The notes: generated by a model not told the origin, from the sequence alone. Counted from the first letter of the whole stretch, positions 8,440 to 63,092 are shown. The stretch is DNA of 63,092 bases, filler included, from 5 parts of 5 records of this genome joined end to end with filler, not necessarily neighbours in it; one strand, 5' to 3'. Numbers and translations are program-made.

Positions 8440-8539
8440 NNNNNNNNNNNNNNNNNNNNNNNNNNNNNNNNNNNNNNNNNNNNTTAATTAATTAANNNNN
8501 NNNNNNNNNNNNNNNNNNNNNNNNNNNNNNNNNNNNNNN
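8440..8539. other. Artificial contig spacer
   Basis: N44-TTAATTAATTAA-N44. Confidence 0.99.
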
Positions 8540-23450: not shown

Positions 23451-23550
23451 NNNNNNNNNNNNNNNNNNNNNNNNNNNNNNNNNNNNNNNNNNNNTTAATT
23501 AATTAANNNNNNNNNNNNNNNNNNNNNNNNNNNNNNNNNNNNNNNNNNNN
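23451..23550. other. Artificial contig spacer
   Basis: N44-TTAATTAATTAA-N44. Confidence 0.99.
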
Positions 23551-31493: not shown

Positions 31494-31593
31494 NNNNNNN
31501 NNNNNNNNNNNNNNNNNNNNNNNNNNNNNNNNNNNNNTTAATTAATTAANNNNNNNNNNNNNNNNNNNNNNNNNNNNNNNNNNNNNNNNNNNN
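31494..31593. other. Artificial contig spacer
   Basis: N44-TTAATTAATTAA-N44. Confidence 0.99.
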
Positions 31594-50661: not shown

Positions 50662-50761
50662 NNNNNNNNNNNNNNNNNNNNNNNNNNNNNNNNNNNNNNN
50701 NNNNNTTAATTAATTAANNNNNNNNNNNNNNNNNNNNNNNNNNNNNNNNNNNNNNNNNNNN
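50662..50761. other. Artificial contig spacer
   Basis: N44-TTAATTAATTAA-N44. Confidence 0.99.
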
Positions 50762-50791
50762 AAACTCGCATCTTGAGGTGGTTTGGGTATA
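50762..50791. repeat. End of an ERIC/IRU-like miniature inverted-repeat element (cut by contig edge)
   Basis: Reverse complement TATACCCAAACCACCTCAAGATGC resembles ERIC termini (TATACCCAAA...). Confidence 0.6.
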
Positions 50792-50803
50792 CGCACTGCA
50801 TAC

Positions 50804-51328
50804 TTACAACGTTGCAGATATAGATGTCGCAAAGGGCTTAAGTAATGTTTCTGCTTTTTCAGTTCTTTCACCCGAATCAGTATGAACGATTAGCACCCAT
50901 TTTCCTGTGCTAGTTGCTTTTCTAACGTTATTGATCAACGGGTCATGATCTGGACGAATTGACATAAGACCAGCCACTAATAGAGCAATAAAAATAGTCA
51001 CAGTACTTATACCTGCGTAAGTTTCGAAAACAAAGTTTTGAATAAACCCCACCCCAATAAATAAAAAGGCCGTGCTTATAACTAAGCCTACAACTAAACC
51101 AATAACACCAAACACAATGTGGGTTTTGAGTAAGGTTTTACCTATATTTTTATCCTCTGGCTCTACCTTTTCGCCAAAATTGTTATCATGAGGAGCAATA
51201 AAATTTATGTTGCTTTGCTCAAATTGCGCATCTTGACTTAAAGTTTCGAATCCCCTGTTAGCCTGTTCTTCACTTTCAAAAACAGCGGCCACTTTAGTCG
51301 CATGATCTTCATTACTACTGGTTACCAT
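50804..51328 (-). CDS. Hypothetical membrane protein (2 TM)
   Basis: 174-aa ORF, GGAGG RBS, KVAAVFES N-terminus, two hydrophobic segments. Confidence 0.8.
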   Translation of the reverse strand: MVTSSNEDHATKVAAVFESEEQANRGFETLSQDAQFEQSNINFIAPHDNNFGEKVEPEDKNIGKTLLKTHIVFGVIGLVVGLVISTAFLFIGVGFIQNFVFETYAGISTVTIFIALLVAGLMSIRPDHDPLINNVRKATSTGKWVLIVHTDSGERTEKAETLLKPFATSISATL

Positions 51329-51673
51329 GTTTCACCTCCAAGTGAATTAGAGCAATTTTAATGAATAAATTACGCTATTAATAAAACGTACTTACACACT
51401 AGCAAAAAAAATACCGAACAAAGCAACTTTAAATAAAATGACACCGCGACCTAAATAAAATCTCGAAGATTAATTGTAAGCCATTGTTTATGAATAACAT
51501 TAAAAAAACATTTAAATATCAATAACAGCTAAGTCTTCTTTTAAATTGTCGCTTTACAACAATCTCCAGTCATAACATCAAGTAAATCATACACAATAAG
51601 GTAAATGTTGCGTTATGTATCAACCCCGTTGAAATAGTTAAAAGATACTTATCAAACACCTTTAAATACCAGT

Positions 51674-51692
51674 AATAAAAACAATTATCATT
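51674..51692 (+). promoter_or_regulatory. Fur box upstream of the TonB receptor
   Basis: AATAAAAACAATTATCATT with a perfect ATTATCA half-site. Confidence 0.65.
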
Positions 51693-51781
51693 AACCTTGC
51701 CTTTACATTTCTTTGCATTTATTATACCGCCCATCAAGTTCAGCCTATTAAATACAGTAATAAGAAAATATAAGGATCTTC

Positions 51782-53920
51782 ATGTTTAAAACCTCTCTAA
51801 CCTTACTGGCACTTGCTGTTAGCACCACAACCTTTGCTGATGACACTATTAAAAAAGAGCAACTAACGGATGAACAAATGGAGCGTATTGTTGTTTCCGG
51901 TAGCCGTGTTTTTGAGAGCATTGATGAGGTCCCTGCATCAATTACCGTTATTAATCAAAAGCAGATTGAAGAGCATTTAAAAGTTAACCCTGAACTACAA
52001 AGCCTGCTTGCGCAAATGGTGCCGGGCCTCGCGCCTGATACTGGGAGTTCAAGTAACACAGGTCAAACACTGCGCGGCCGCGCTCCACTGGTGATGATTG
52101 ACGGTGTGCCGCAATCAACACCATTGCGCAATGGTTCTTTAGGCATTAAAACGCTCGACCCAAGTGCCATAAGCAGAATAGAGGTTATCAAAGGCGCAAC
52201 CTCTATCTACGGCAATGGCGCTTCCGGCGGTATTATCAACTACATAACCAAACACGCTAAAAGTAATGATAAAACACAGGGCGAAATCAGCCTATCAAGT
52301 CGTTTTAGCGCAGTAAAACTAGAAGAAAGCGCTGGCGCAAGATTGTCAGCTGCCATAAACGGTCGCGCTGACAAATTTAGCTATTTAGTAACGGCAAGCT
52401 ATGAAGAAAACGGCGTTCAGCGTGATTCGCAAGGCGATATTCTAGGTCTGCAATACGGCTTGTCCGATGCGGTTACAGAAAACTATTTTACAAAACTTGG
52501 CTATGATTTTGACGACGAAAAACAGCTACAATTTAGCTATAACTACTTTAGTTCACAGCAAAAAACAGACCTTGGTGATGTAAATGGTGATATGAGTTTA
52601 GGTGAAAAAACCTACGCAATTCATGTACCACCAGAATTACAAAAAAAAGGTAAACCACAAGGCCCTGAAGGCAACGAAAATATTACCCTAAAATACACAG
52701 ATTATGCATTATTTGAAAACACCCAAATGACGCTAGATCTCTATATGCAAGATATAGAAAACGTATTTTTCTTCTCACCAAACCTCGCAAACCCTGAGGA
52801 AAACTTCGATGGTGGCCAATCAGTCATCAGCTCAGACAAAAAAGGCGCGCGTGCTACATTTAATACACAAGTAGACTTCGACACAATTGAAGCTTCTTTT
52901 ATTTATGGCATTGATGCATTAAATGATGTCACTTCACAACCACTGGTAGATGGTCGTGTTTGGGTTCCTGAGATGGATATGAAAAGCGTTGCGGGATTTC
53001 TACAAACTAAATGGGTAATTGCGAATGACCTTATTGTCAAAGCAGGTGTTCGCCAAGAAAGCATTGATTTAAGCGTAGACGATTACCGCACACTCAAACT
53101 ATGTAAAACGCCAACTCAATGCTCAATACCGATCAATGTAAAAGGTGACACCATTGATTACGATGCTACAACTTATAACGTTGGTATTAAATACAACCTT
53201 AGTGAAAAATTCAGCCCATTTATAAGTTACTCGCAAGGCTCTGATATATCAGATGTTGGGCGCCTACTTCGCGCAGCAACAGTAAACGATATTGGGCTTA
53301 TTCAAACCCAGGCTTCAATTATCGATAATTACGAAATTGGCTTTAACTCACAGTTTGAAAACCTACGTATTGAAATCGCAGCCTATCGCAGCACCTCTGA
53401 ACTTGGCACAACTAACAAATTTAACGAAGTGACTGGTGTATATGAGCCAGTACGTGCACCACAAGAAATTTGGGGCTACGAAACGCTAGTAGATTACACA
53501 ATTGCCTCAAACCTTAAATTACTGGCAACCTATAGTTATGTTGAAGGTAAAAATACCGAAGCAGATGTGTACTTAGGCTCAAAACAAATAAGCCCACCAA
53601 AAGCGACAGCAAACTTAAACTGGCAACCTGATGATAAAACATCACTGACACTGAGTTACCTACATGTTAGCGATAGAAAGCGCTTTGCACCAAATGACGA
53701 TGGCAAGTATGTTGGCGATCAAGGTCCCGTCAACAGCTACAATATTTTTAACTTAAGCGGTCAATACAAATTTGACGATAACTGGCAGGGTTTTATAGGC
53801 ATTGAAAACTTACTCAATGAAGACTACTTCCCTGCCCGCGCTCAGTCATATACATACGGCGGCTATAATATAAAAGGCCTCGGTACAACCGCTACTGTCG
53901 GTGTTAAATACCAGTTTTAA
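51782..53920 (+). CDS. TonB-dependent siderophore receptor
   Basis: TonB box ERIVVSG, plug LRGR..IDGVP..RIEVIKG..YG..GGIIN, C-terminal YQF. Confidence 0.95.
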   Translation: MFKTSLTLLALAVSTTTFADDTIKKEQLTDEQMERIVVSGSRVFESIDEVPASITVINQKQIEEHLKVNPELQSLLAQMVPGLAPDTGSSSNTGQTLRGRAPLVMIDGVPQSTPLRNGSLGIKTLDPSAISRIEVIKGATSIYGNGASGGIINYITKHAKSNDKTQGEISLSSRFSAVKLEESAGARLSAAINGRADKFSYLVTASYEENGVQRDSQGDILGLQYGLSDAVTENYFTKLGYDFDDEKQLQFSYNYFSSQQKTDLGDVNGDMSLGEKTYAIHVPPELQKKGKPQGPEGNENITLKYTDYALFENTQMTLDLYMQDIENVFFFSPNLANPEENFDGGQSVISSDKKGARATFNTQVDFDTIEASFIYGIDALNDVTSQPLVDGRVWVPEMDMKSVAGFLQTKWVIANDLIVKAGVRQESIDLSVDDYRTLKLCKTPTQCSIPINVKGDTIDYDATTYNVGIKYNLSEKFSPFISYSQGSDISDVGRLLRAATVNDIGLIQTQASIIDNYEIGFNSQFENLRIEIAAYRSTSELGTTNKFNEVTGVYEPVRAPQEIWGYETLVDYTIASNLKLLATYSYVEGKNTEADVYLGSKQISPPKATANLNWQPDDKTSLTLSYLHVSDRKRFAPNDDGKYVGDQGPVNSYNIFNLSGQYKFDDNWQGFIGIENLLNEDYFPARAQSYTYGGYNIKGLGTTATVGVKYQF

Positions 53921-54149
53921 TACTCTGCTTCTCTAACTCGTTCATTACACAGAGTAAAGAACGAGTTAGATTAGACCTTAAGCAATGCAGCAGAAATATA
54001 AATCGTAATCTGTTCATAATTAAACCAACAATGCAAACTTAAACGAGAATCACACTCAATAGTAACCAACTGATTTAAAAGGAAAATACTTGCAAAAAGT
54101 AATTTTTGTACTACACTAGCTACAATCAATCTTTTAGAAGGTCACAATT

Positions 54150-54623
54150 ATGAAAGGTAATCAAAAAGTTATCGACAGCTTCAATAAGTTATTAGCCAAT
54201 GAGCTTGCAGCCATTGACCAATATTTTATCCACTCTCGCATGTATGACGATTGGGGTTTAGATAAACTTTATGTTCGCCTAAATCATGAGATGGAAGAAG
54301 AAAAAGATCACGCCGATTGGCTTATCAAGCGCATCTTATTTTTAGAAGGTGTTCCAAATATGACAAAACGCCGTGACTTGATTATTGGTCATGACGTTAA
54401 AAGCATGATGCAAAACGACTTAACTCTTGAACTTGAAGTTGTTGAATGTGTTAAAGAGGTTATTGCTGTTTGTGAACAAGAAAAAGACTATCAGTCTCGT
54501 GAAATCTTAGAAAAGCTGTTATTCGATACAGAAGAAGATCACGTTTACTGGTTAGAGCAACAACTTGGCTTAATTGATAAAATTGGTAGCCAAAACTATC
54601 ACCAATCACAAATGGGCGAATAG
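54150..54623 (+). CDS. bfr: Bacterioferritin subunit 1 (ferroxidase centre present, haem Met52 absent)
   Basis: E18, E51, H54 and EEDH present; K at position 52. Confidence 0.93.
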   Translation: MKGNQKVIDSFNKLLANELAAIDQYFIHSRMYDDWGLDKLYVRLNHEMEEEKDHADWLIKRILFLEGVPNMTKRRDLIIGHDVKSMMQNDLTLELEVVECVKEVIAVCEQEKDYQSREILEKLLFDTEEDHVYWLEQQLGLIDKIGSQNYHQSQMGE

Positions 54624-54633
54624 GAGCAAACAC

Positions 54634-55098
54634 ATGAAAGGCGATAAAGACGTAATTGTTGCACTAAACAAAGTCCTAGCAAATGAACTGGTAGGAATTA
54701 ATCAATACTTTTTACATGCACGCATGTTTAAAGATTTTGGTTTTAGTGTACTTGATAAAGCTGATTACAAAGTGTCTATTCAAAAAATGAAAAATGCCGA
54801 TCGTTTAATCGAACGTATTTTATTTTTAGAAGGCTTGCCTAATTTACAAGATCTTGGCCGTTTACGCATTGGTGAAAACAGCGAAGAAATGATCAACGCT
54901 AATATGAGCTTTGAACTCGATTCACTCGATGATCTTAAAGATGCAATTAAACTTGCTGAAAGCAAACAAGATTATATCAGCCGCGAAGCACTTGATAACA
55001 TTTTAAACGAGCAAGAAGAGCAAATCGATTGGCTTGAAACCCAGCAACAGCTTATTAAAAGCACGGGTATTGAAAACTACTTACAATCGCAAATGTGA
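54634..55098 (+). CDS. bfr: Bacterioferritin subunit 2 (haem Met52 present, ferroxidase centre degenerate)
   Basis: M52 kept; K51, N54, Q127, Q130 replace the catalytic ligands. Confidence 0.93.
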   Translation: MKGDKDVIVALNKVLANELVGINQYFLHARMFKDFGFSVLDKADYKVSIQKMKNADRLIERILFLEGLPNLQDLGRLRIGENSEEMINANMSFELDSLDDLKDAIKLAESKQDYISREALDNILNEQEEQIDWLETQQQLIKSTGIENYLQSQM

Positions 55099-55111
55099 GC
55101 AGATTAAAAAC

Positions 55112-55140
55112 AAAAAAAGCAGCTTAGGCTGCTTTTTTTT
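55112..55140. terminator. Bidirectional terminator between bfr and bfd
   Basis: AAAAAAAGCAGC-ttag-GCTGCTTTTTTTT. Confidence 0.88.
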
Positions 55141-55161
55141 GCTTTGTAACTAATACTGTAG

Positions 55162-55356
55162 CTACGCAACTTGATCTGTAATATCAGCTATTTCAATAAG
55201 CTTACGATTAAGGATTTTTTTAGTACAGCAACAACATTTACCGCATTGACTCCCGACCTTAAGCTCTTTACTGAGCTCACGCATCGTCATCGCACCTTCG
55301 TCGATTGTTTGTTCAATTTTTTTATCTGTCACACCGTGACATAAACAGATATACAT
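55162..55356 (-). CDS. bfd: Bacterioferritin-associated ferredoxin
   Basis: MYICLCHGVTD..GSQCGKC, 64 aa. Confidence 0.95.
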   Translation of the reverse strand: MYICLCHGVTDKKIEQTIDEGAMTMRELSKELKVGSQCGKCCCCTKKILNRKLIEIADITDQVA

Positions 55357-55438
55357 GAATACAAACCACTCTCAATTACATTTGAGCCTGTATATTAATC
55401 TAAACGCTAACTGTTCGCAATTAGTTTTTAAAATAAAT

Positions 55439-55453
55439 TGAGAATTATTTTTA
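55439..55453. promoter_or_regulatory. Fur box upstream of bfd
   Basis: TGAGAAT-T-ATTTTTA versus the TGATAAT-N-ATTATCA consensus. Confidence 0.6.
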
Positions 55454-55524
55454 TTTGTGGCCAGCGCCACTTAAATCGAGAATTCACGGCAGCTTGAGAA
55501 TTGTTTGAATTTCATTAAAAGCAC

Positions 55525-55662
55525 GGCACTTAAATTGAGGTTTATTGATCCTATTATGGCCTTAAGTTGTGCCATATAAATCGAGATTCAATTAGCTTAT
55601 TAATCCTTTAAACTGTGCCTTTCAAGTCGAGATTTATTAATCTCACCTGTTCTTAAATTTAA
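55525..55662. repeat. Degenerate 46-bp tandem repeat x3 (extra partial copy at 55466)
   Basis: Units start at 55525, 55571 and 55617 with core GCCACTTAAATCGAGATTTATT. Confidence 0.75.
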
Positions 55663-55792
55663 GTAAGATTAGCTTTAGGTAAATAAGTAGTGAGTTCATG
55701 AATTGATCTCATAAAGGCTTTATAAGCCTTTATGAATAAATATGGAATTTACTGAAGCGTTTCTATTTCCGGTTTGTGCCAAGAGCAGACAT

Positions 55793-55882
55793 TGGTAACG
55801 CCAGCTACAACGGACGTGTTTTAAGTGATTGAGTGAAACGAAAGCGGCTTAAAACCGTTCCGATTGCTTGCTTTTGTTTGTT
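55793..55882 (-). mobile_element. attC site E (R'' degenerate)
   Basis: AACAAAC..CGGAACG-GTTTTAAG/CTTAAAAC-ACGTCCG..GGC GTTACCA directly after a stop codon. Confidence 0.7.
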
Positions 55883-56217
55883 TATTGTGAACAGATACAA
55901 TAATCAATATTTCTATCAAAAGCATTGCACTTCTCTATGGCACCTATTTTTCCCATCTTAGCTTCACCTGAATGATAACCAAAGCTTCCACCTGATAACC
56001 GTGAAGATACCTTTTTATAATTGTACCAAGCAACTTCGATTATATTTGATGTTTTTTGGAATCCTTTACAGACATCAAGGAAGCGCACTTGTTCTTTAGT
56101 AATCGGTTTTATTTCACCATTCTCAAGTGCTGACATCCATACGCCGTACTTTTTTATTGCAGCTAGGTTGTCATCACTTAAACTACTTATCTCCTGCGGG
56201 GTTAACTTAAACTCTAT
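55882..56217 (-). CDS. DUF413/MaoP(YifE)-like cassette protein; open frame extends to an ATA at 56217
   Basis: KYGVWMSALENGEIKPITKEQVRFLDVCKG..IEVAWYNYK resembles DUF413; first ATG is internal (56136). Confidence 0.6.
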   Translation of the reverse strand: MEFKLTPQEISSLSDDNLAAIKKYGVWMSALENGEIKPITKEQVRFLDVCKGFQKTSNIIEVAWYNYKKVSSRLSGGSFGYHSGEAKMGKIGAIEKCNAFDRNIDYCICSQ

Positions 56218-56226
56218 ATTAATTAA

Positions 56227-56394
56227 CTACTTATGAGCATCCGCATCGGCCTGACTCGCATCAACACCAGCCGAATGCGTGTCGCTATCTACAGAATGTT
56301 TTTCAAAACGATTCGCCTTGTGTTTTTTTGAGGAAGGTACAAAAAACATCCAACCTACAATAGCGACAAATAGACAGATAAATAATATTTCCAC
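56227..56394 (-). CDS. Small single-TM cassette protein
   Basis: GTG start with GAGG RBS just inside attC D R'; hydrophobic N-terminus and acidic tail. Confidence 0.6.
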   Translation of the reverse strand: MEILFICLFVAIVGWMFFVPSSKKHKANRFEKHSVDSDTHSAGVDASQADADAHK

Positions 56395-56421
56395 AACTAC
56401 CTCAGAAGAAGGCCAGAGCAA

Positions 56422-56477
56422 ACATAACGCCCCAAGCGCCACAATGTTACGAATCCGACTGACTTGGCTTGTTAGCA
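56422..56477 (-). mobile_element. attC site D (short)
   Basis: TGCTAAC AAGCCAAG..CTTGG GGC GTTATGT. Confidence 0.75.
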
Positions 56478-57034
56478 GCTTGTTGAACTAACACATGGAC
56501 TGCCCAACCAAACCACCCCATAGTTGGAATTGCCCAAATACGCTGAATTAACCCATTATACTGGCTGGGAATAAACCCTGCGTATATTAACCAAAACATA
56601 AATACATGAATAAAACTCAACAGCAGGCAGAATTCTCGGAAAGCTTTAGACTCTATCATTGACTCAAATTCGAAAGCATAAGCCACTGGTATTAAAACCA
56701 TGAATATAGATAAACCATATAAAAGATGAAGCCTGCTTTCCAACGTCCAAATACCTGCGCTAATCATACTTACACCAAGTAAAAATATTGATAGCGTAGC
56801 CAACGTAATTCGGCTCCGATGAAGTCGCTGAGCAACGAATGCAAAGAGGCACATAGAAAAACCAATAACTATATCTGCTGTTCTATGTGTATAAGCAAAG
56901 AACGGAGCCTCTAGAGCTAGATGACTGATACTTTTAGCTATAGGATTAAAGCCAGTTATAAAGAATCCAATTCCAATGTTATAAATTGAAAATATCCAAA
57001 CTAAGTGAGTTTGTTTTAATAAAATACTATTCAT
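56447..57034 (-). CDS. DUF998-like membrane protein (gene cassette)
   Basis: ISHLA..LHLLYG..GLIQRI motifs; about 5 TM; bounded by GTTAGCAGC and GCTGCTAAC. Confidence 0.78.
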   Translation of the reverse strand: MNSILLKQTHLVWIFSIYNIGIGFFITGFNPIAKSISHLALEAPFFAYTHRTADIVIGFSMCLFAFVAQRLHRSRITLATLSIFLLGVSMISAGIWTLESRLHLLYGLSIFMVLIPVAYAFEFESMIESKAFREFCLLLSFIHVFMFWLIYAGFIPSQYNGLIQRIWAIPTMGWFGWAVHVLVQQAANKPSQSDS

Positions 57035-57063
57035 TTACTCGATACTAAAATATATGCTTTGGC

Positions 57064-57164
57064 TGCTAACGCCTCATTCAGAGGCAATATAATAGCTGGT
57101 TAAAATTAGCGAGGTACGAGCAAAAACCAGCTGTTTTTTATCCTGCTGAAATGACTTGTTAGCT
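57064..57164 (-). mobile_element. attC site C
   Basis: AGCTAAC AAGTCATTTCAG..AACAGCTGGTT/AACCAGCTATT..CTGAATGA GGC GTTAGCA; the gene's stop codon lies in R''. Confidence 0.9.
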
Positions 57165-57647
57165 CTCGCTTAATACCTTGTTGCAACTATAAACTGTGCC
57201 ATCTGTTTCTGATTTAACTTTTAGCAAAGAGTTATTTAGAACTAATATTTCGGATGACTCACTAATATTTTGTGGAAACATACTTTCTAAGTCTAATAGT
57301 TCATCAAACTCAGGATGACTTATATTTACAAGCTTAATTTCTGTTGTTGTTTCGATAAGATATCCATTATCTAGCTCCCAACTTGAACTGTCTGCCATAG
57401 AATATTCCATCTCGGGAATATCTGGTGCTTTGAATTTTAATATGCCAAAGCCATTAGACTTACCATTACGAATATAAGTAACGTCATAATCAATTGATAA
57501 TTTGACATCTTCTTCTTGGAAGTTCAATTTACAATTCCAAGTTCCGTATAGTTTTGTTTCAGGCAGCTCATATTTAATTGGATTTGTGCTGCATGCAGAC
57601 ATCAAAAGTGTACTCGTTATTAATGGTAAAGCTTTAAGGTAATTCAT
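57159..57647 (-). CDS. Hypothetical lipoprotein (gene cassette)
   Basis: Lipobox LMSAC; LYGTWNC lipocalin-like motif; AAGGA RBS. Confidence 0.8.
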   Translation of the reverse strand: MNYLKALPLITSTLLMSACSTNPIKYELPETKLYGTWNCKLNFQEEDVKLSIDYDVTYIRNGKSNGFGILKFKAPDIPEMEYSMADSSSWELDNGYLIETTTEIKLVNISHPEFDELLDLESMFPQNISESSEILVLNNSLLKVKSETDGTVYSCNKVLSES

Positions 57648-57670
57648 ATATATCCTTATATTGACTAGAG

Positions 57671-57729
57671 AGCTAGCATTTTAGTATTTATGCGACACGC
57701 AGTTTGTGTTGCATAATCGCTTGTTGGGC
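57671..57729 (-). mobile_element. attC site B (R' mutated GTT>GCT)
   Basis: GCCCAAC AAGCG ATTATGCAACAC/GTGTCGCATAAAT .. GCTAGCTCTC. Confidence 0.65.
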
Positions 57730-58103
57730 TGAGGCGCTACCTGCTCGGTGTATAGAGTTGGTGTTGTTTATGCTATGGGAATTTGCTTTTTAGAGGCTCT
57801 AGCTAAATCAGCTAATTTAATAAGCTTACTTATTATAATTTAAGCTTTCCCTGCATTGCTCAGCGTTTATTATCTATTCATTAAACCGAATGTTTAACCG
57901 TTAAGCAAGGATATTTTTCTTACGCACAGTCGTGACTAGCCTGAGCAGTTAAGCAGGTTAACTTATTGACTTGATGCAGCAAGCAAGATGATAATTAACA
58001 GTGAGGGCTATCAATAAATCAAAGGTGATGTCATGCGCCACCGTTTTTGACTGGCCGGTTATCGCTCACAGCCGAACTTTGTAAAAGTGCCATGAGCGGA
58101 AGT

Positions 58104-58199
58104 TCGTAACGCCGCCTCAAGCTGTGAGTGAACACGTGCCATGTTTGAGCGGAGAGTTCGGCACGCGTTTACGAATCAGGCTTAAAGGCTTTGTTAACC
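58104..58199 (-). mobile_element. attC site A
   Basis: GGTTAAC AAAGCCTTTAAGC..ACGCGTGCC/GGCACGTGT..GCTTGAGG CGGC GTTACGA; the gene's stop codon lies in R''. Confidence 0.9.
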
Positions 58200-58637
58200 G
58201 TCAAAATCGATGATTATAAGAACACTGTTTGCTGTGTCGTAAAGAACCATAAGTGAATATACAAAAACACCAATAATGGCAACATTTAGAAGTAGTTCAG
58301 CATTATCCATAGCAATAATATGTTCTGAACCTTTAATACTAAGTATGCTGATCGATATGACGACCAGTGCTATTTGTTCTTTTATTGATAGTAACATTTG
58401 GTCACGTGTACGTTTGAAACAACCAGCACTACCTTTAGAATCAACCATTTCACGAACTTTAGTCAAAACAATACCCATCGTAGTAGCGTTAATAGCTAGC
58501 AAAGCAATGAGTATCGTAACTAGATTTTGTGCTAAAAACGTATGTAAAAACTCAGACCCAAGCCATGAGTTTGTCAGTTCAGCAATGAAGCCAACCCCTA
58601 AGGCAATGAATGTGGTTTTTACAACGTGTCCTATCAT
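58194..58637 (-). CDS. Four-TM membrane protein, second gene of a two-gene cassette
   Basis: 147 aa with four hydrophobic segments; ATGA overlap with the upstream gene. Confidence 0.82.
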   Translation of the reverse strand: MIGHVVKTTFIALGVGFIAELTNSWLGSEFLHTFLAQNLVTILIALLAINATTMGIVLTKVREMVDSKGSAGCFKRTRDQMLLSIKEQIALVVISISILSIKGSEHIIAMDNAELLLNVAIIGVFVYSLMVLYDTANSVLIIIDFDG

Positions 58638-59485
58638 TTGAGCAACTCTTTTAATACTTGGGCAATTTGTTCCGCATTACCCGTTAATTCCATTTCACCC
58701 AACGATATTTCTTTGACTGTGCGGGAAGTCTGATGATGTTTCTTAATGCCATCAATTTTAAGTGAAATATTACCTCCCCCCTCACTACTATAGTCAACCA
58801 AACCTTTCAACGCAGAGTTATCTTCTTCAAGATGCAGTGCTGAATCATGCTCAGATTCAATTTTCAAATTGTTTCTTGTCGAGTTTGTACACTTTGCAAA
58901 CAATTTAAGATCATCAGGTAATGTCCCTGAGATATTTGCCATATTTGGAGTTATTATTTCAAAATCAACTGATTTTACTTTGCCACGATATTTTCGTAAT
59001 AAAGTCCAAAATTGTTGTTTTTCAAATAATGGTTCGTATATAGCTCGAAGTTGAAAATGAGTTAACTGCGGCTCTATTTTTTCTAGTATGAGTTTTGCTA
59101 CGGTTTCACACTTTGCAAATGCAGTTGTTCTTTTTTGAACAGCTATGTACTGCTTATCAGGATGGTTCCAGATCGCAACGAGAATGGACGGCCAACTATC
59201 GATTGTTTCATCTTTGAAGTCACGCGTTTCTCTATGAAGAGTTTTATTGTGGGCAATTCGATACAAGTAAAAATCACCGTGATTAAGTAATTGCTTGACC
59301 ACAGTCTTATGCCGTTTATTTGAAAAGTCTGATTGAACCAGCAAAGCTTGAGCAAAAAACTTGTTTTTCTGCTTGATCAATTCTTCAACATTATGAACTC
59401 CGTTAAAGAAGTCACCTTGAAAGTATCGGTCTACAGGAAGAATCTGATACCTAAACAACTTAAATGTGTTCGTTTTACTACTCAT
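58634..59485 (-). CDS. Hypothetical soluble protein (DUF4747/KwaB-like by motif impression), first gene of the cassette
   Basis: 283 aa; FW..L.....VKSVDFEIITPN motif; GGAG RBS; starts 31 nt after an R' box. Confidence 0.78.
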   Translation of the reverse strand: MSSKTNTFKLFRYQILPVDRYFQGDFFNGVHNVEELIKQKNKFFAQALLVQSDFSNKRHKTVVKQLLNHGDFYLYRIAHNKTLHRETRDFKDETIDSWPSILVAIWNHPDKQYIAVQKRTTAFAKCETVAKLILEKIEPQLTHFQLRAIYEPLFEKQQFWTLLRKYRGKVKSVDFEIITPNMANISGTLPDDLKLFAKCTNSTRNNLKIESEHDSALHLEEDNSALKGLVDYSSEGGGNISLKIDGIKKHHQTSRTVKEISLGEMELTGNAEQIAQVLKELLK

Positions 59486-59509
59486 AATACTCCGAGATTA
59501 GCCCATGAT

Positions 59510-59684
59510 GGTTAACAGCTTTATCAGAGGACACTTTCCCTATTTTAGCGTGAAAACATCCATATTTTATTAGCTTCTATTAATAACAAAAAGCATAAGT
59601 TATTGCTAGCTATATATATTATGCTTAGGATGGCTTATTTCGTTATGTAGAAGGGGGGAAAGTACCCTTTAGCCTTACTTAGCA
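59510..59684 (-). mobile_element. Upstream recombination site F (degenerate long attC or attI-like)
   Basis: R' GTTAACC at 59516-59510; imperfect inverted repeat 59527-59540/59656-59669; R'' not canonical. Confidence 0.5.
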
Positions 59685-59846
59685 GGGGGCAAATTTCCTG
59701 AATGACCGCTGATCGATCAAAATCCTTTTAGACAAAATGTGATTTAACGTAATTATTCTATAGGTCTCAGAGTTACCCTAAATTCGAGGCTTGCTCATCT
59801 GATGCGGAAAGACCACTGTTAAATATTGACTTGGAACAGGTAAAAA

Positions 59847-60218
59847 CTACTTTGAATTTAACTCTATCCCATTCGCCTCTGACCATTTTCTTAAATCATC
59901 TAAAATAGAAAGTGCTGATTTGCCAAAATCAGTAAGTTCATATGTAACAGCTATGGGTCTGTCGCTTATAACCCTTCTAATTACCATACCTTCTTCTTCA
60001 AGTTCCTTGAGACGTTGATCAACCATTTTTTTTGTTGCGCCGCCTAGCATTCGAGCTAAATCATTAAATCGGACTGGCTCATCTTTTAAATGATAAATGA
60101 TTGATCCTTTCCATTTTCCACCGATCAAACGCATACCTTTTTCAATCGCGCAAGGCTCCATGCACGCGTTATAAACTTTTTTTCTTCCCTTAGTATCTGT
60201 TTTTATATAACTTTCCAC
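59847..60218 (-). CDS. HxlR-family transcriptional regulator
   Basis: CAIEKGMRLIGGKWKG..RFNDL..QRLKELE..VTYELT. Confidence 0.92.
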   Translation of the reverse strand: MESYIKTDTKGRKKVYNACMEPCAIEKGMRLIGGKWKGSIIYHLKDEPVRFNDLARMLGGATKKMVDQRLKELEEEGMVIRRVISDRPIAVTYELTDFGKSALSILDDLRKWSEANGIELNSK

Positions 60219-60337
60219 AGTTGCTCACTCATTTTACTTAGGTTACTAAAAGTATACTAATTGATAGTTGTATGTAGGTGTATAAAATATACCACGGTTA
60301 AGCATTCAAAATAAATTTTATTTTTGGAGAAACTCAA

Positions 60338-60919
60338 ATGAGCAATATTTTAATTATTAATGGTCACCAATATTACCCTTTTTCAGAAGGTAAGCTAAAC
60401 GCTACGCTAGTAGAAAAAGCAGTTTCTATATTAGAGGCAAAAGGCCACAAAACTCGCGTAGTTACGACCTTAGAAGAGATTAATGTTGAGAAAGAACTTG
60501 AAAATCATCAATGGGCTGACATCGTTATTCTTCAAACCCCGGTAAACTGGATGGGTGTTACTTGGTCATTCAAAAAATACATGGATGAAGTTTATACAGC
60601 GGGTATGGGTGGTGCATTATGTGTTGGTGATGGTCGTGACGCATCTGCACCTAAAAAGAACTATGGCATGGGTGGCACACTAACTAATACAAAATACATG
60701 ATGTCTCTAACGTTAAATGCGCCAGAAGAAGCGTTTAATGATGAAAACGAATTCTTCGATGGAAAATCAATTGATGACCTATTATTCCCTATGCATATGA
60801 ACTTCAAGTTTTTTGGTATGAAGCCTATGGAAACATTTGCATGCTTTGACGTGATGAAAAATGCCGATGTTGAAAGCGACTTCAAACGTTTTGAAGCTCA
60901 CATTACCAAGCATTTTTAA
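60338..60919 (+). CDS. MdaB-like NAD(P)H:quinone oxidoreductase (flavodoxin-2)
   Basis: ILIINGH, QTPVNWMG..FKKYMDEV, YMMSLTLNAP, CFDVMKN. Confidence 0.9.
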   Translation: MSNILIINGHQYYPFSEGKLNATLVEKAVSILEAKGHKTRVVTTLEEINVEKELENHQWADIVILQTPVNWMGVTWSFKKYMDEVYTAGMGGALCVGDGRDASAPKKNYGMGGTLTNTKYMMSLTLNAPEEAFNDENEFFDGKSIDDLLFPMHMNFKFFGMKPMETFACFDVMKNADVESDFKRFEAHITKHF

Positions 60920-60928
60920 GGGACAGTT

Positions 60929-61471
60929 ATGAGCGTTGAATATACTACTAAATTACACGCGGGTACTGACTTCCCTGTAATTGAAGCAAAGCTATTAAAT
61001 GGTGATATTAAAAAACTTTCTACTCCTGAAAATGGTTTGGATTGGAAGATGGTTGTTGTTTACAGAGGCCAACATTGCCCTCTTTGTACACGATACCTGA
61101 ACCAATTAGGAAACGCGAAAGACTTACTTGCTCAAACAGGCGTAGATTTGATCGCCGTTTCTGGTGACAGTAAAGAGCAACTCGAAAGTCATATGGAAAG
61201 ACTTAATGTGACTTTCCCTATTGCATACGGCCTTACCCTTGAACAAATGGAAGAGCTTGGGTTGTATATATCAGATCCAAGGTCCCTAGAAGAAACCGAT
61301 CATCCATTTGCTGAACCGGGGCTATTTGTAGTCAATAGTGAAGGAAAAGTTCACGTAGCAGACATTTCTAACAATCCGTTTGTAAGACCTGAACTTCAGT
61401 CTCTAATTAGTGGCTTAGCTTGGATACGAAACCCTGATAACAACTACCCCATTCGTGGTATGCATAAATAG
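60929..61471 (+). CDS. Peroxiredoxin-like AhpC/TSA protein
   Basis: VVYRGQHCPLC; FAEPGLF; YPIRG. Confidence 0.88.
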   Translation: MSVEYTTKLHAGTDFPVIEAKLLNGDIKKLSTPENGLDWKMVVVYRGQHCPLCTRYLNQLGNAKDLLAQTGVDLIAVSGDSKEQLESHMERLNVTFPIAYGLTLEQMEELGLYISDPRSLEETDHPFAEPGLFVVNSEGKVHVADISNNPFVRPELQSLISGLAWIRNPDNNYPIRGMHK

Positions 61472-61479
61472 GAGCTACT

Positions 61480-61842
61480 ATGAAAAAGGTTGTATTGACT
61501 GCTGTTATTTCAGCCCTATTACTTGGAAACGCATTTGCAGATGACACAATAGTCGAACCTGCGCACATCGCATCTCCAAAACAATATGAACTTCTTCTTG
61601 TGAACGAACAAGTTACGGTGCTTAAGATGACACTTAAACCAGGAGAACAAGATAATTGGCATAAGCACAATGCTGAGACTGTTTACTTCGAAAAAGGTGG
61701 CAAGGCAACGATAATAACGAGTGAAAAAGACATGATTTTGGAGCTCCCGGATGGCTACGTGATGTGGCATGACCAATGGGAACACCAAGTTAAAAATGTT
61801 GGTAACAAAACAATCACTGCAATTATCGTAGAGAAGAAATAA
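61480..61842 (+). CDS. Secreted cupin-domain protein
   Basis: Signal peptide; LKPGEQDNWHKH..EHQVKNVG. Confidence 0.82.
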   Translation: MKKVVLTAVISALLLGNAFADDTIVEPAHIASPKQYELLLVNEQVTVLKMTLKPGEQDNWHKHNAETVYFEKGGKATIITSEKDMILELPDGYVMWHDQWEHQVKNVGNKTITAIIVEKK

Positions 61843-61962
61843 TGATGTCAAAGACCCAAACTAACGATTGAAATCGTTTCTGGTGTGGTATGTCCTTGGA
61901 GTGTAATTGGCTATAGTCGCTTAAAAGCAGCATTAGCCAATTGCCTTGCCCTGAATCTTTAG
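61842..61962 (+). pseudogene. FrnE/DsbA-family remnant
   Basis: After a frameshift at the start: KLTIEIVSGVVCPWSVIGYSRLKAAL (family pattern IDIVSDVVCPWC.IG..RL), then an early stop. Confidence 0.75.
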
Positions 61963-62161
61963 TCACTCTATAGCATTGAATTAGATCGATTGGGACAGTT
62001 TGGTTTCAATTCTAATGGGCAGAAACAATTTAATCATGAATAACTGCTTATGGCACACAGCCCCCCTCTAACGCGTTTTTGTCCAAAAACAAGTTTACCC
62101 GACCATCTGCATGCTTTAAGCCTAAATACTGTGAATTGCAGTGGAGTTTGTTAGGTTGTAT

Positions 62162-62758
62162 TTATCCTATTAAAAACAGTGAATAAACGAACAACCAAAG
62201 TATTTGAGAGCCATAACTAAGTCTTTGATATAAGCCTGGAACGGTTTTTAATTTGAATGCTTGGGTTAATTTATAAGAAAAATAAAAGCAGCACAGCAGA
62301 CAAACCGCTGAAATAAAACGCAGTAGCAACGGGTAAGAGCTTGAAAAAATAACGATTTTAGGCGCTATGATGAATGAAACTAGTAGTATTAGCCCTGACC
62401 AAGAATGGATTTTACAACTTTGCGAAGGTGAATTTGTATATGCATCAGCATCCATAGGAAACCAGCCACAGACCCACGTGCATATAGCATGTATGACAAC
62501 CATTACACCTATTGCTACTGTAGGCAGGTGTGATTGGTATTCGATGATTAAGTAACAACCAAAAACAGCGAACAACGCCCCTAAAGGGTAATTATTTATT
62601 AATGGCGACAGTTTTTGAGTGGGGCTGCCAAAAGCACCTAGCTCACTACAAAACTGCTTTGCGTGACTGTAGTTAGGATAAAACCTCGAGGCAATATATA
62701 TACCTAAGATAATCCATACAGATGCGATGATCCCTGTATAAGCTAAAGTAGAGTCCAA
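62162..62758 (-). CDS. DUF998-family membrane protein
   Basis: YPNYSHAKQFCSELGAFGSP, FPMD, IHSWSG, GLYQRL. Confidence 0.85.
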   Translation of the reverse strand: MDSTLAYTGIIASVWIILGIYIASRFYPNYSHAKQFCSELGAFGSPTQKLSPLINNYPLGALFAVFGCYLIIEYQSHLPTVAIGVMVVIHAICTWVCGWFPMDADAYTNSPSQSCKIHSWSGLILLVSFIIAPKIVIFSSSYPLLLRFISAVCLLCCFYFSYKLTQAFKLKTVPGLYQRLSYGSQILWLFVYSLFLIG

Positions 62759-62881
62759 ATTTAATTCCTTTTAAAAGATTGGCGTCGTGGTCTTAAGTGA
62801 AATACCGTTAGTTCAAGTCACTGATAGAATAACAAATATCTTTAACTTTGCCTTTGATTAAAGCGTATTAATAGTAGCTGT

Positions 62882-63061
62882 TTAAAATATGTCTAATCCC
62901 GGTATAGCCGCTTTGCTAGGATGCATGCAATGATACAAATATATTGCAAGCCCAACATCTCCTGTCCATAAAGTATATCGCCCTTGCCAATAATGCAAAC
63001 GAGCTGTACGGCATTGCTCAATAGCATGCATTGCGAATTTTTTTGCTCTTTCAAGCCATAC
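62882..63061 (-). pseudogene. LanC-like protein C-terminal remnant
   Basis: WLERAKKFAMHAIEQ..RYTLWTGDVGLAIYL..PGLDIF*; in-frame TAG at 63073-63071 immediately upstream. Confidence 0.7.
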
Positions 63062-63092
63062 AAAAATAAACTAGACAGCCACTTTAATTGAG

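Follow-up and report, generated by a model that had tools for sequence, protein, structure and literature searches.

We analysed a stretch of 63,092 nucleotides (the window) in which an 18-nt motif lies directly beside attC sites. Judged from genome comparison, this motif is an arm of a recombination-type site that marks swaps of gene blocks between marine Pseudoalteromonas genomes, and a tiny recombinase, at work beside the classical integron, is probably what drives the swaps. A first-pass annotation had proposed that the motif belongs to a separate recombination element, part of a second cassette-like system, and that it acts as a structured, preferred landing pad for cassettes. That interpretation is partly supported: genome comparison argues for a repeated recombination-type element distinct from attC and for a second cassette-like system, and a structured site is not supported, there being no covariation.

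The 18 nt make up the outer A arm of a composite site of 60-65 bp, which reads, in order, (G|TTACC) AATGTCCGCTCA, TGGCAC, a spacer of about 18 nt with AAnTTCGGC, GAGCGA and, as its last block, TAACCGGTCATTGA. This last block is the B arm, an inverted copy of the A arm that is 6-7 nt longer. The copy W2 carries all of these elements at full length (Table 1) and aligns with 39 other distinct copies; on the minus strand its A arm spans 58104-58087 (TGGCAC at 58092-58087) and, beyond the spacer, GAGCGA lies at 58067-58062 and the B arm at 58061-58048. W1 is a lone A arm that lacks both spacer and B arm; it marks the fixed edge of a variable island on the bfd side, and matches the site profile at 55800-55767 (model positions 2-35, 17.7 bits, nhmmer). 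The arm at this locus is present in 7 other genomes, each time behind different upstream DNA, and two more (L028 and L021) retain only TGGCACAAACCGG there.

All four sequences reported in the first-pass annotation are in place: the minus strand reads GTTACC-AATGTCTGCTCTTGGCAC at 55799-55776 and GTTACG-AACTTCCGCTCATGGCAC at 58110-58087, and the plus strand carries AATAACTGCTTATGGCAC at 62039-62056 and AATGACCGCT at 59701-59710. The last of these had been described as a partial copy; the sequence is there, but it is not a truncated motif. It is a B-arm-type half site read from the opposite strand, an inverted B arm, and the leader that follows the half site is the one found at the right flank of such a unit, with a recombinase gene, in locus L133. 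Taken alone, W3 is at chance level (model positions 4-26, 9.2 bits, E 0.2, nhmmer); we count it as a real copy because in G077 and G128 the position orthologous to it, where the hxlR module ends, has AATGACTGCTCATGACAC, which scores 9.7 bits. As had been noted, non-coding DNA follows both attC-adjacent copies: past 58087, the next minus-strand ORF of at least 70 aa is 57647-57159, and past 55776 lies the promoter region of a 64-aa Fer2_BFD gene (55356-55165).

Table 1. Site copies, modules, attC sites and mini hairpin in the window.
Feature	Position	Strand	Remarks
W1, A-arm copy (AATGTCTGCTCTTGGCAC)	55776..55793	-	bfd-side edge of variable island
W2, full composite site	58042..58111	-	nhmmer 68.3 bits, E 6.6e-20
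B-arm-type half site (GATCGA, then TCAGCGGTCATTCAGG)	59691..59719	-	nhmmer model positions 45-73, 9.1 bits
W3, A-arm copy (AATAACTGCTTATGGCAC)	62034..62056	+	right end of hxlR module
Module 1	59713..62064	+	hxlR (minus strand), mdaB-like flavodoxin, peroxiredoxin, cupin, DsbA-like remnant (Pfam)
Module 2	58062..59712	-	200-nt repeated leader, 283-aa and 147-aa ORFs, attC A, W2 A arm and spacer
Module 3	55794..58061	-	B arm, 315-nt ORF-less repeated block, then integron-type cassettes
attC E	55794..55890	-	long imperfect hairpin, then GGC-GTTACC; R' box GTTACC abuts W1
attC A (ends GAGGCGGCGTTACG)	58105..58196	-	R' box abuts W2
Variant AAC-stem-loop-GTT mini hairpin	62070..62096	+	G001 synteny resumes in loop, 62081

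These four copies and half-copies cut a 6.3-kb island (55801-62081), which sits between bfd and a DUF998 gene, into three modules. Module 1 is 96% identical over exactly 59713-62064 in G077:C1 and G128:C15, both of which are other contexts, and its portion 59713-60977 is 99% identical in G041; the suggestion that copies delimit mobile modules, with one pair bracketing the hxlR-mdaB-prx-cupin block, is thereby supported. The two ORFs of Module 2 are of unknown family; their coding part is 75% identical in G123, and a 1473-nt contig of public run X2 covers 58069-59541. The 315-nt block of Module 3 ends in an attC-like hairpin, and the cassettes that follow are, in order, a 162-aa ORF with attC B, a DUF998 gene with attC C, a 71-aa ORF and a DUF413 gene with attC E.

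The window loses or regains homology to other genomes at 55801, 59713 and 62064/62081, in each case at a copy or next to one. Relative to Pseudoalteromonas sp. 3D05 (L001, G001), homology stops at 55801 and resumes at 62081, that to G041, G077 and G128 begins at 59713, with the breakpoint between 59712 and 59713, and homology to Module 1 ends at 62064. In the other public runs, contigs in 4 of 4 start matching at 59713, with unlike DNA before each, and in one contig of run X17 position 58097 is fused directly to 59713, the two sides having no bases in common at the junction. Between-genome breakpoints thus fall at the site, though not at one position within it: across loci they lie after GAGCGA, at 59712|59713, at 62064 (8 nt after TGGCAC) and at 55801 (at G|TT).

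The site is spread through the genus, within integron arrays as well as outside them. Of 140 Pseudoalteromonas genomes, 78 have a match at E<=1 to an 83-nt query around W2, and 28 have one at E<=1e-4; the matches often cluster 0.6-7 kb apart. In an alignment of 40 distinct full copies, TGGCAC and GAGCGA hardly vary. A family of AAC-stem-loop-GTT mini hairpins accompanies sites at many loci. The motif pattern of the first-pass annotation has 83 matches in 57 of the 140 genomes, against 18 for a reversed control. GTTAY stands one base upstream in 10 of the 83, compared with about 0.16 expected (a roughly 60-fold excess) and 0 among control matches, a strong enrichment right behind GTTAY; the binomial P of 1.7e-15 holds if copies are independent, related genomes being treated as independent. 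The two arms are complementary in consensus only, with 70% of cells paired. There is no arm-to-arm covariation, since the observed pairing is matched by 153 and the covariation score by 117 of 500 shuffles; by these shuffles the site also lacks the hairpin held by compensatory change that marks REP/REPIN elements.

We recognised as attC sites imperfect hairpins of 55-140 nt whose ends are formed by an R'' (..AAC) paired with an R' (GTT....). By this architecture the calls of attC A and attC B look right: in their DNA folds the terminal TAAC pairs with GTTA and the L boxes form inner stems. attC C and attC E are plausible by eye only, and the R'' of the latter is weak (CAAAC). About 10 other genomes carry attC B (57067-57162) at 95-97% identity. 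An Rfam scan for known RNA returned only 3 sub-threshold sRNA matches; Rfam has no attC model. A tblastn search of the 63-kb window with the IntI of G001 gave nothing better than E 4.4, and therefore the array is an attC cluster without an integrase, with no intI and attI beside it. G001 has an intact intI on another contig.

A recombinase co-occurring with the motif had been anticipated, and relatives hold a candidate. In G133, a 207-aa ORF of the Phage_integrase family (PF00589, E 8e-15, residues 41-191, Pfam) sits between the two halves of a site. By eye, the protein has the catalytic-type motifs LRGCDL, KKTG, HSMRRT, LGH and RYLG, which we take to be the R..K..HxxR..H..Y residues of tyrosine recombinases, so that it combines the domain with the residues of that class. 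It scores below every curated NCBIfam cut-off (the best is XerA-type, 58.6 bits against a cut-off of 220), TIGR02249 (IntI) is absent from its matches, and PDB sequences gave no match at E<=0.001. We found no description of this recombinase family in the literature.

At 98-100% amino acid identity the recombinase occurs at 12 places in 11 genomes, and 27 of the 140 Pseudoalteromonas genomes have a homologue at E<=1e-20. When the 12 loci are aligned, similarity is confined to about 740 bp; this unit holds the recombinase gene only and lies between TGGCAC and GAGCGA, with a clear A arm at its left flank at some loci only. Among loci with shared left flanks (groups of 4 and 3), similarity stops at the identical base after ...TTCGGGTATGAGCGA, and different DNA follows. 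The exact motif is present in 22 of the 27 recombinase-positive genomes versus 35 of 113 others (Fisher p = 2e-6, phylogeny not corrected). Diverged recombinase genes of the family occur in 71 of 401 genomes, and at many of 29 loci examined sequences of the ATGACCGCT type and the GAGCGA type can be seen on their flanks; beside these genes, the Pseudoalteromonas site model matches at E<=1 on the A side at 5 and on the B side at 8 of the 29 loci, and a looser regex, run with no control, at 14 and 11. The window contains no recombinase gene (tblastn, nothing better than E 3.4), and neither its near relative G001 nor G041, G077 and G128 has one at E<=1e-20, though the same sites and modules are present.

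One pair of alleles provides an empty site of the kind that the first-pass annotation had suggested looking for. Up to GAGCGA, loci L132 (G137) and L136 (G019) are 100% identical over 2172 nt; past it, their identity is 98.9% over 375 nt. L136 is empty, and L132 holds about 1.06 kb of extra DNA that encodes a TIR protein and ends in A arm, spacer and GAGCGA. Because polymorphisms flank GAGCGA on both sides, the exchange is confined to these 6 bp. None of the junctions read showed a target-site duplication on inspection. Defence-type genes (TIR, HNH, ABC-3C CTD10) are among the cargo of modules.

Could a passive REP- or MITE-like repeat, selfish or regulatory in nature, produce such mosaicism, through homologous recombination between copies and with no dedicated recombinase? 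It would fit that the site is a multi-copy imperfect palindrome found between genes, that breakpoints do not share one nucleotide but are scattered in and around it, and that modules recur in genomes without the recombinase. Such a repeat does not readily explain why recombinase loci with shared left flanks lose similarity at the same base after GAGCGA, why the L132/L136 insertion is precise, or why a recombinase gene is located within the site, and it sits poorly with the lack of target-site duplication at the junctions inspected; we consider it unlikely. Chance resemblance of short sequences draws on the E value of W3 alone and on a shuffle test of the motif pattern in the window, which finds 3 matches where 0.67 are expected, a number attained in 3 of 100 shuffles. 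This test is circular, because the pattern came from these three copies; a fairer figure is the agreement of the two attC-adjacent copies at 14 of 18 positions in fixed register after the R' box (P ~4e-5, computed with p=0.3 per position). The score of W2, the genus-wide family and three independent homology breakpoints within 6.3 kb, each at most 25 nt from a copy, rule chance out for W1, W2 and the 59701 copy, and as a general account we give it next to no credence.

The remaining alternatives turn on the integron. In one, the motif would be the conserved 5' end (TTACC-AATG...) of a common family of integron cassettes or of leader cassettes without an ORF, IntI would move everything at G|TT, and the recombinase would be unrelated cargo. 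This agrees with an array in G133 that shares its contig with an intact intI, lies 67-85 kb downstream of that gene and has successive cassettes that read site, leader, ORF, attC; with the leaders after sites, which are repeated families, one of them closing with an attC-like hairpin of its own and G|TTATG; and with the 12 of 40 distinct full copies in which GTTRY falls within the 8 nt that precede the A arm. The other 28 have no GTTRY there, although several of them follow a mini hairpin with its GTTAC about 4 nt further upstream and only some are without any attC or hairpin. The first-pass annotation had itself raised a cassette-family 5' end, and the motif does also form the 5' end of leaders, but GAGCGA breakpoints and attC-free copies are left unexplained: the L132 cassette has no classical attC and is inserted at GAGCGA, not G|TT, and neither the 59713 breakpoint nor the recombinase-unit boundaries lie at a GTT core. 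Moreover, the cassettes beside the true intI/attI of G001 do not begin with the motif, and an integron acting alone strikes us as improbable. The earlier proposal of a structured secondary site, preferred by IntI as a landing pad for attC cassettes, appeals to the overrepresentation of GTTAY precisely one base upstream of the motif and to the many unrelated attCs that meet the motif at one nucleotide. Ordinary exchange between attC sites, upstream of a junction of G|TTAC and motif that stays fixed, would produce the pattern just as well; the arms do not covary, mini-hairpin copies are spaced GTTA-N6-AATG, where a single crossover would not yield GTTACC-AATG, and the window encodes no IntI. We regard this proposal as very doubtful.

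Sites recombined by the small recombinase would have parallels in several known systems. As in integrons, the recombinase gene has a variable insertion point near its 5' end, promoter-poor single-gene modules each carry a recombination site and can form arrays, and the cargo includes defence-type genes. Unlike in integrons, the recombinase is a 207-aa protein and not IntI, the sites share sequence blocks (TGGCAC, GAGCGA) rather than only a fold, no covariation points to a folded single strand, and exchange maps to GAGCGA instead of G|TT. IS1111-attC insertion sequences and group IIC-attC introns have their insertion points within attC, and their enzyme is a DEDD transposase or a reverse transcriptase. 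Like them, the element described here is foreign DNA at a fixed position to the attC core of many independent attCs, yet it begins after the R' box, is associated with a tyrosine recombinase and also occurs without attC. MITE/autonomous pairs come to mind since the 60-bp form resembles the 740-bp unit minus its interior, with TGGCAC and ...TTCGGnnnnGAGCGA kept; in contrast to such pairs, no target-site duplication is seen, no transposase is encoded, and the short form marks module junctions, not random intergenic insertions. Gene modules between short recombinase-type sites are also described for the pdif (XerC/XerD) modules of Acinetobacter plasmids (for example PMC6449649, PMC11705084). Sites in both orientations, one module in different contexts and movement inferred mainly by comparison are shared features, whereas pdif uses host XerCD and the site here has a dedicated small recombinase gene nested in it. 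By inspection, the sites in Pseudoalteromonas do not look dif-like (11-6-11), and their setting is chromosomal, marine and interleaved with attC cassettes.

It is therefore the comparative record on which our preferred reading is based: composite sites flank, and rather probably serve as substrates of, the 207-aa tyrosine recombinases, and the DNA between sites probably moves as modules. What comparison establishes is the anatomy of the site, the limits of the recombinase unit, a single insertion polymorphism, the window's breakpoints and the enrichment beside GTTAY. Under this model, a stretch between two sites would behave as a module; a circle with one site would integrate at, or be excised from, a resident site, with strand exchange inside GAGCGA, and oppositely oriented sites would permit inversion. 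Many modules hold ordinary integron cassettes, the last attC ending in G|TTAC directly before the A arm. Exchange between attC sites by IntI would swap all DNA upstream of G|TT and leave TTAC and the A arm in place, and many attCs would consequently abut the motif at one nucleotide. We infer that IntI accounts for the attC junction and that the recombinase catalyses the exchanges at the sites and can act in trans; in the window, the sites may be relics of such exchanges, or they may still be served by a recombinase acting in trans.

The 18-nt motif repeated in the island is probably one arm (the A arm) of a recombination site, belonging to a small-recombinase module system that is interleaved with the integron cassettes. 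All four motif sequences are present where the first-pass annotation had placed them, as inspection of the window confirmed. The two copies that adjoin attC sites agree at 14 of 18 positions, in a fixed register after the R' box (P ~4e-5). The window holds three motif matches against 0.67 expected, a number reached in 3 of 100 shuffles by a test that is circular because its pattern was derived from these same copies. Among the putative attC sites, A and B show, upon DNA folding, the terminal AAC/GTT pairing typical of attC sites, and C and E look plausible on visual inspection only. The centre of attC A (58130-58160) holds GTGCCGAACTCTCCGCTCAAACATGGCAC, a near-duplicate of the motif region 3' of the same attC, and attC A and the adjoining site may share a history. 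A sigma-54 promoter (TGGCAC-N5-TTGC) was rejected, TTGC being absent at the right spacing in all three copies by inspection, and Rfam (E<=1, 55000-63092) returned three sub-threshold sRNA matches only, none at the motif.

Features of the island and of its counterparts; positions are those of the window unless a contig is named
Feature	Position	Strand	Sequence or description
Small attC cluster		minus	between the Fer2_BFD gene (with two Ferritin-domain genes) and the HxlR regulator gene
W1	55799-55776	minus	GTTACC, then AATGTCTGCTCTTGGCAC
W2, A arm	58110-58087	minus	GTTACG, then AACTTCCGCTCATGGCAC
W3	62039-62056	plus	AATAACTGCTTATGGCAC
Copy first read as partial	59701-59710	plus	AATGACCGCT
Full site (profile)	58111-58042	minus	68 bits
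Lone A arm (profile)	55800-55767		17.7 bits
Lone B arm (profile)	59719-59691		9.1 bits
Weak A arm (profile)	62034-62056		9.2 bits, E 0.2
hxlR module	59713-62064		hxlR, flavodoxin-like, peroxiredoxin and cupin genes
ORF-less block, 315 nt	57674-57987	minus	3' of W2
Non-coding leader, 200 nt	59511-59719	minus	directly 3' of the 59719 half site
Four repeats, ~56 nt apart	55480-55660	minus	AATCTCGAnTTnAAnGGCAC; conserved at L001 13700-13860
Short open frame	61860-61960		like a DsbA-family isomerase N-terminus (by eye)
Mini hairpins	62070-62096; L001 15255-15285; many other loci		
Island counterpart in G001	L001 14019-22136 and L174 1-6067; G001:C19:73167-87067		13.9 kb of different genes

A second copy in the genome of Pseudoalteromonas sp. 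3D05 (G001), 1.2 kb from the first, shares similarity with W2 over ~70 nt, not 18. An 83-nt query around W2 has matches in 78 of 140 sampled Pseudoalteromonas genomes at E<=1 (28 at E<=1e-4), frequently clustered 0.6-7 kb apart, and the aligned copies give the consensus (GCGTTACC)AATGTCCGCTCA-TGGCAC-TTTnnCGAAnTTCGGCnnn-GAGCGA-TAACCGGTCATTGA, whose TGGCAC and GAGCGA blocks vary little or not at all across 40 distinct full copies. The B arm is the A arm inverted, with 6-7 extra bases; a profile of the site therefore also matches its own reverse strand, and the same inversion explains the plus-strand 'partial' motif of the first-pass annotation. The sequence of that copy stands, and the profile match identifies it as the B arm belonging to a site on the minus strand. 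The annotation had also proposed a structured secondary site; the alignment speaks against one structured as a single strand. With the A and B arms set against each other, 70% of cells are complementary, versus 29-38% for slid controls; column shuffles reach the same value in 153 of 500 cases and the same covariation score in 117 of 500. The symmetry of the arms is thus a property of the consensus and not of copy-by-copy pairing, and would resemble that of two inverted protein-binding arms. A folded hairpin was rejected as well, given single-sequence DNA folds of z = -1.6 (W2) and z = +0.6 (W1) and no covariation.

The copies coincide with the edges of exchanged DNA. A query with the TonB-receptor protein of the window returned 71 loci, led by strain 3D05 (contig piece L001) and followed by other Pseudoalteromonas. 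The window aligns with L001 over 50762-55801 only, at 98.8% identity, the two being different genomes, and homology is lost two bases past the GTTACC of attC E. W1 thus lies in DNA common to both strains, and all beyond it differs. Synteny with G001 resumes at 62081, which delimits a variable island of 6.3 kb (55801-62081). The same slot in 3D05 carries two sulfatase-family genes (one with an EptA/EptB N-terminal domain), dgkA and a response-regulator/histidine-kinase pair, and on the bfd side this block is edged by a full site plus the shared A arm. At this edge, seven other genomes keep the A arm followed by AAACCGGAAAT, with an attC, a mini hairpin or a 23-nt AAC..GTT element upstream; in two further genomes only TGGCACAAACCGG is left, behind a REP-like hairpin. 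The repeats upstream of bfd adjoin an AT-rich, Fur-box-like stretch and may be a regulator binding array. Parts of the window are masked by eight runs of 44 N, in four pairs (8440-8539, 23451-23550, 31494-31593 and 50662-50761), one of which directly precedes the L001-aligned stretch.

The hxlR module, which was proposed to be bracketed by the 59701 and 62039 copies, indeed recurs as a block. It is 96% identical in two other Pseudoalteromonas genomes (G077 and G128), in other contexts and with AATGACTGCTCATGACAC at the position equivalent to W3; its first 1265 nt are 99% identical in a third (G041), and its ends are the 59701 copy and the 62039 copy plus 8 nt. Contigs from four other public runs (X2, X3, X13 and X17) were aligned to the island, contig-free stretches not counting as absence. 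The match begins at 59713 in all four, with unlike DNA before it, and continues through 62300 in X13 and X2. In X17, the left end of the module adjoins a fragment of another site copy (58064-58097); a further X17 joint, 57164|58119, has a side of 32 nt. The short open frame inside the module is an apparent gene remnant. Within 6.3 kb, three independent breakpoints lie <=25 nt from motif copies (chance 1e-5 or less), a coincidence that, by this rough estimate, would be very unlikely to arise by chance.

A candidate enzyme was found in relatives. In the array of one Pseudoalteromonas genome (G133), 740 bp interrupt one site and encode, on the opposite strand, a 207-aa Phage_integrase-family protein with tyrosine-recombinase motifs (by eye). 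The protein recurs at 98-100% identity in 12 places in 11 genomes, with homologues at E<=1e-20 in 27 of 140; across the 12 aligned loci, similarity is confined to ~740 bp, from just after TGGC/AC to ...TTCGGGTATGAGCGA. The protein scores under all curated NCBIfam cut-offs, a PDB sequence search gave no matches, and the database names of its very large family (207-208 aa) are generic only (integrase or XerC), with at least 8000 proteins at E<=0.001 among the matches listed. The exact motif is present in 22 of the 27 recombinase-positive genomes versus 35 of the 113 others (Fisher p = 2e-6, uncorrected for phylogeny). Beside many of 29 loci with diverged recombinase genes, ATGACCGCT-type and GAGCGA-type sequences are visible.

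Downstream of the sites lie recurrent non-coding leaders. Following W2 are the B arm, ~70 nt and then the ORF-less block, which starts after a GTTAGCAGC-type box, terminates in its own attC-like hairpin and a G|TTATG box (GCTAGC in the window), and has no Rfam match. Copies of 75-99% identity, often several per genome, occur in most of the 106 query-matching genomes of 140. Many genomes contain copies of the shorter leader, at 74-88% identity and in front of unrelated ORFs; it may serve as a portable promoter or 5' region. One leader class carries repeated TTTTGT..AATAAC blocks, for which a Tn7-like end was considered. The G133 array (L119 34-1293 and 1639-14000; G133:C1) repeatedly shows the order site, leader, ORF, attC; it starts immediately behind an impB/umuC-family gene, and the contig also has an intact intI, 67-85 kb upstream of the array. 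The array carries HNH, ABC-3C CTD10 and DUF1883-TIR genes and probably represents the distal end of a large chromosomal integron. PADLOC assigned no family to six cargo proteins of the window and G001, which gives no ground for ascribing a defence role to the cassettes of the window itself.

How the motif came to lie beside attC sites bears on the alternatives. Of the 140 genomes, 57 contain the exact degenerate motif, with 83 occurrences in all versus 18 for the reversed control, and GTTAY stands exactly one base upstream in 10 of the 83 versus ~0.16 expected and no control matches (binomial P = 1.7e-15, assuming independent copies, the sampled genomes being related). This bears out the proposed enrichment next to attC cores, and a chance resemblance is scarcely credible. 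The adjacency is real and strong, yet not universal: GTTRY occurs in the 8 nt before the A arm in 12 of 40 distinct full copies, several others follow a mini hairpin of 27-31 nt at a different spacing, and some follow neither. The mini hairpins form a perfect family (AAC-TCGTTTT-GGGGCAG-AAACGA-GTT), framed by AAC and GTT and found in both orientations, and resemble a minimal attC; the loop of the one in the window is the point where G001 synteny resumes. The first-pass annotation had read the motif as a landing pad for IntI within a second cassette-like system. Sequence comparison supports the separate module system; a landing pad is very improbable. An attC would first come to abut the A arm, and IntI-mediated attC x attC exchange would then replace the DNA upstream of G|TT, leaving TTAC and the A arm in place. 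Such exchange upstream of a fixed junction would give the attC junction, so that no special landing pad would be needed. The motif could also head a cassette-leader family moved by the integron only. The order of the G133 array would fit such a family; none of the G001 cassettes adjoining intI/attI begins with the motif, and we consider this explanation unlikely.

Also unlikely is a passive repeat, with homologous recombination between copies. Within each of two groups of recombinase loci (four and three genomes), >1.4 kb of left flank plus the recombinase are shared, and similarity breaks off after GAGCGA at one common base, beyond which the DNA is unrelated. Loci L132 and L136, from two genomes, have 100% identity across 2172 nt as far as GAGCGA and 98.9% across 375 nt on its far side; L132 contains an additional 1.06 kb, which includes a TIR-domain gene and terminates in an A arm, spacer and GAGCGA. 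Since differences abut the hexamer on the left (GTAT vs CAAA) and right (TTACC vs AAAGC), exchange is confined to GAGCGA. The insertion is not at a G|TT core and brings a cassette without a classical attC; judged from the alignment, it has the signature of conservative site-specific integration of a one-site circle. Neither an integron integrase nor the small recombinase was found in the window (63 kb). The absence of the latter there and from four genomes sharing the window's modules weighs against recombination by that enzyme. Breakpoint positions are not uniform, and no single crossover position could be derived for all boundaries; the A-arm-side and 62064 breaks do not simply fit exchange at GAGCGA. 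Site detection beside the diverged recombinases is weak, the Pseudoalteromonas profile (E<=1) matching the A side in 5 and the B side in 8 of 29 loci.

A self-contained second cassette system is a possible reading, if a doubtful one with all its parts taken jointly. The 207-aa recombinase, with an attI-like GAGCGA ~60 nt upstream of its start codon, would capture circular modules bearing one composite site each; it would have colonised integron arrays, IntI acting at G|TT and the small recombinase at GAGCGA, so that one gene cassette could be moved by two unrelated recombinases. The likeness to integrons lies in a recombinase gene with an adjacent variable insertion point, and that to pdif modules in portable modules bounded by sites in both orientations. 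The system is a member of neither, as its enzyme is not IntI, its sites share sequence blocks and exchange is at GAGCGA. The listings and abstract openings returned by full-text literature searches contain no description of this recombinase-and-site system.

Cassette capture in Gram-negative bacteria is ascribed to integrons. If the favoured reading is true, the same arrays are divided into exchangeable blocks by another, far smaller tyrosine recombinase that has conserved sites of its own, and attC clusters without an integrase would have to be read differently. ORF-less 'leader' cassettes would be explained, as would the movement of whole multi-gene modules between genomes, such as the hxlR redox module, and a compact new pair of site-specific recombinase and site would be added. 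Given the size of the recombinase family, with homologues in 71 of the 401 genomes sampled from the taxonomic family, this undescribed mechanism would be widespread. Should the fuller, more tentative reading also hold, marine Alteromonadaceae would have two superimposed systems for shuffling defence and stress genes.
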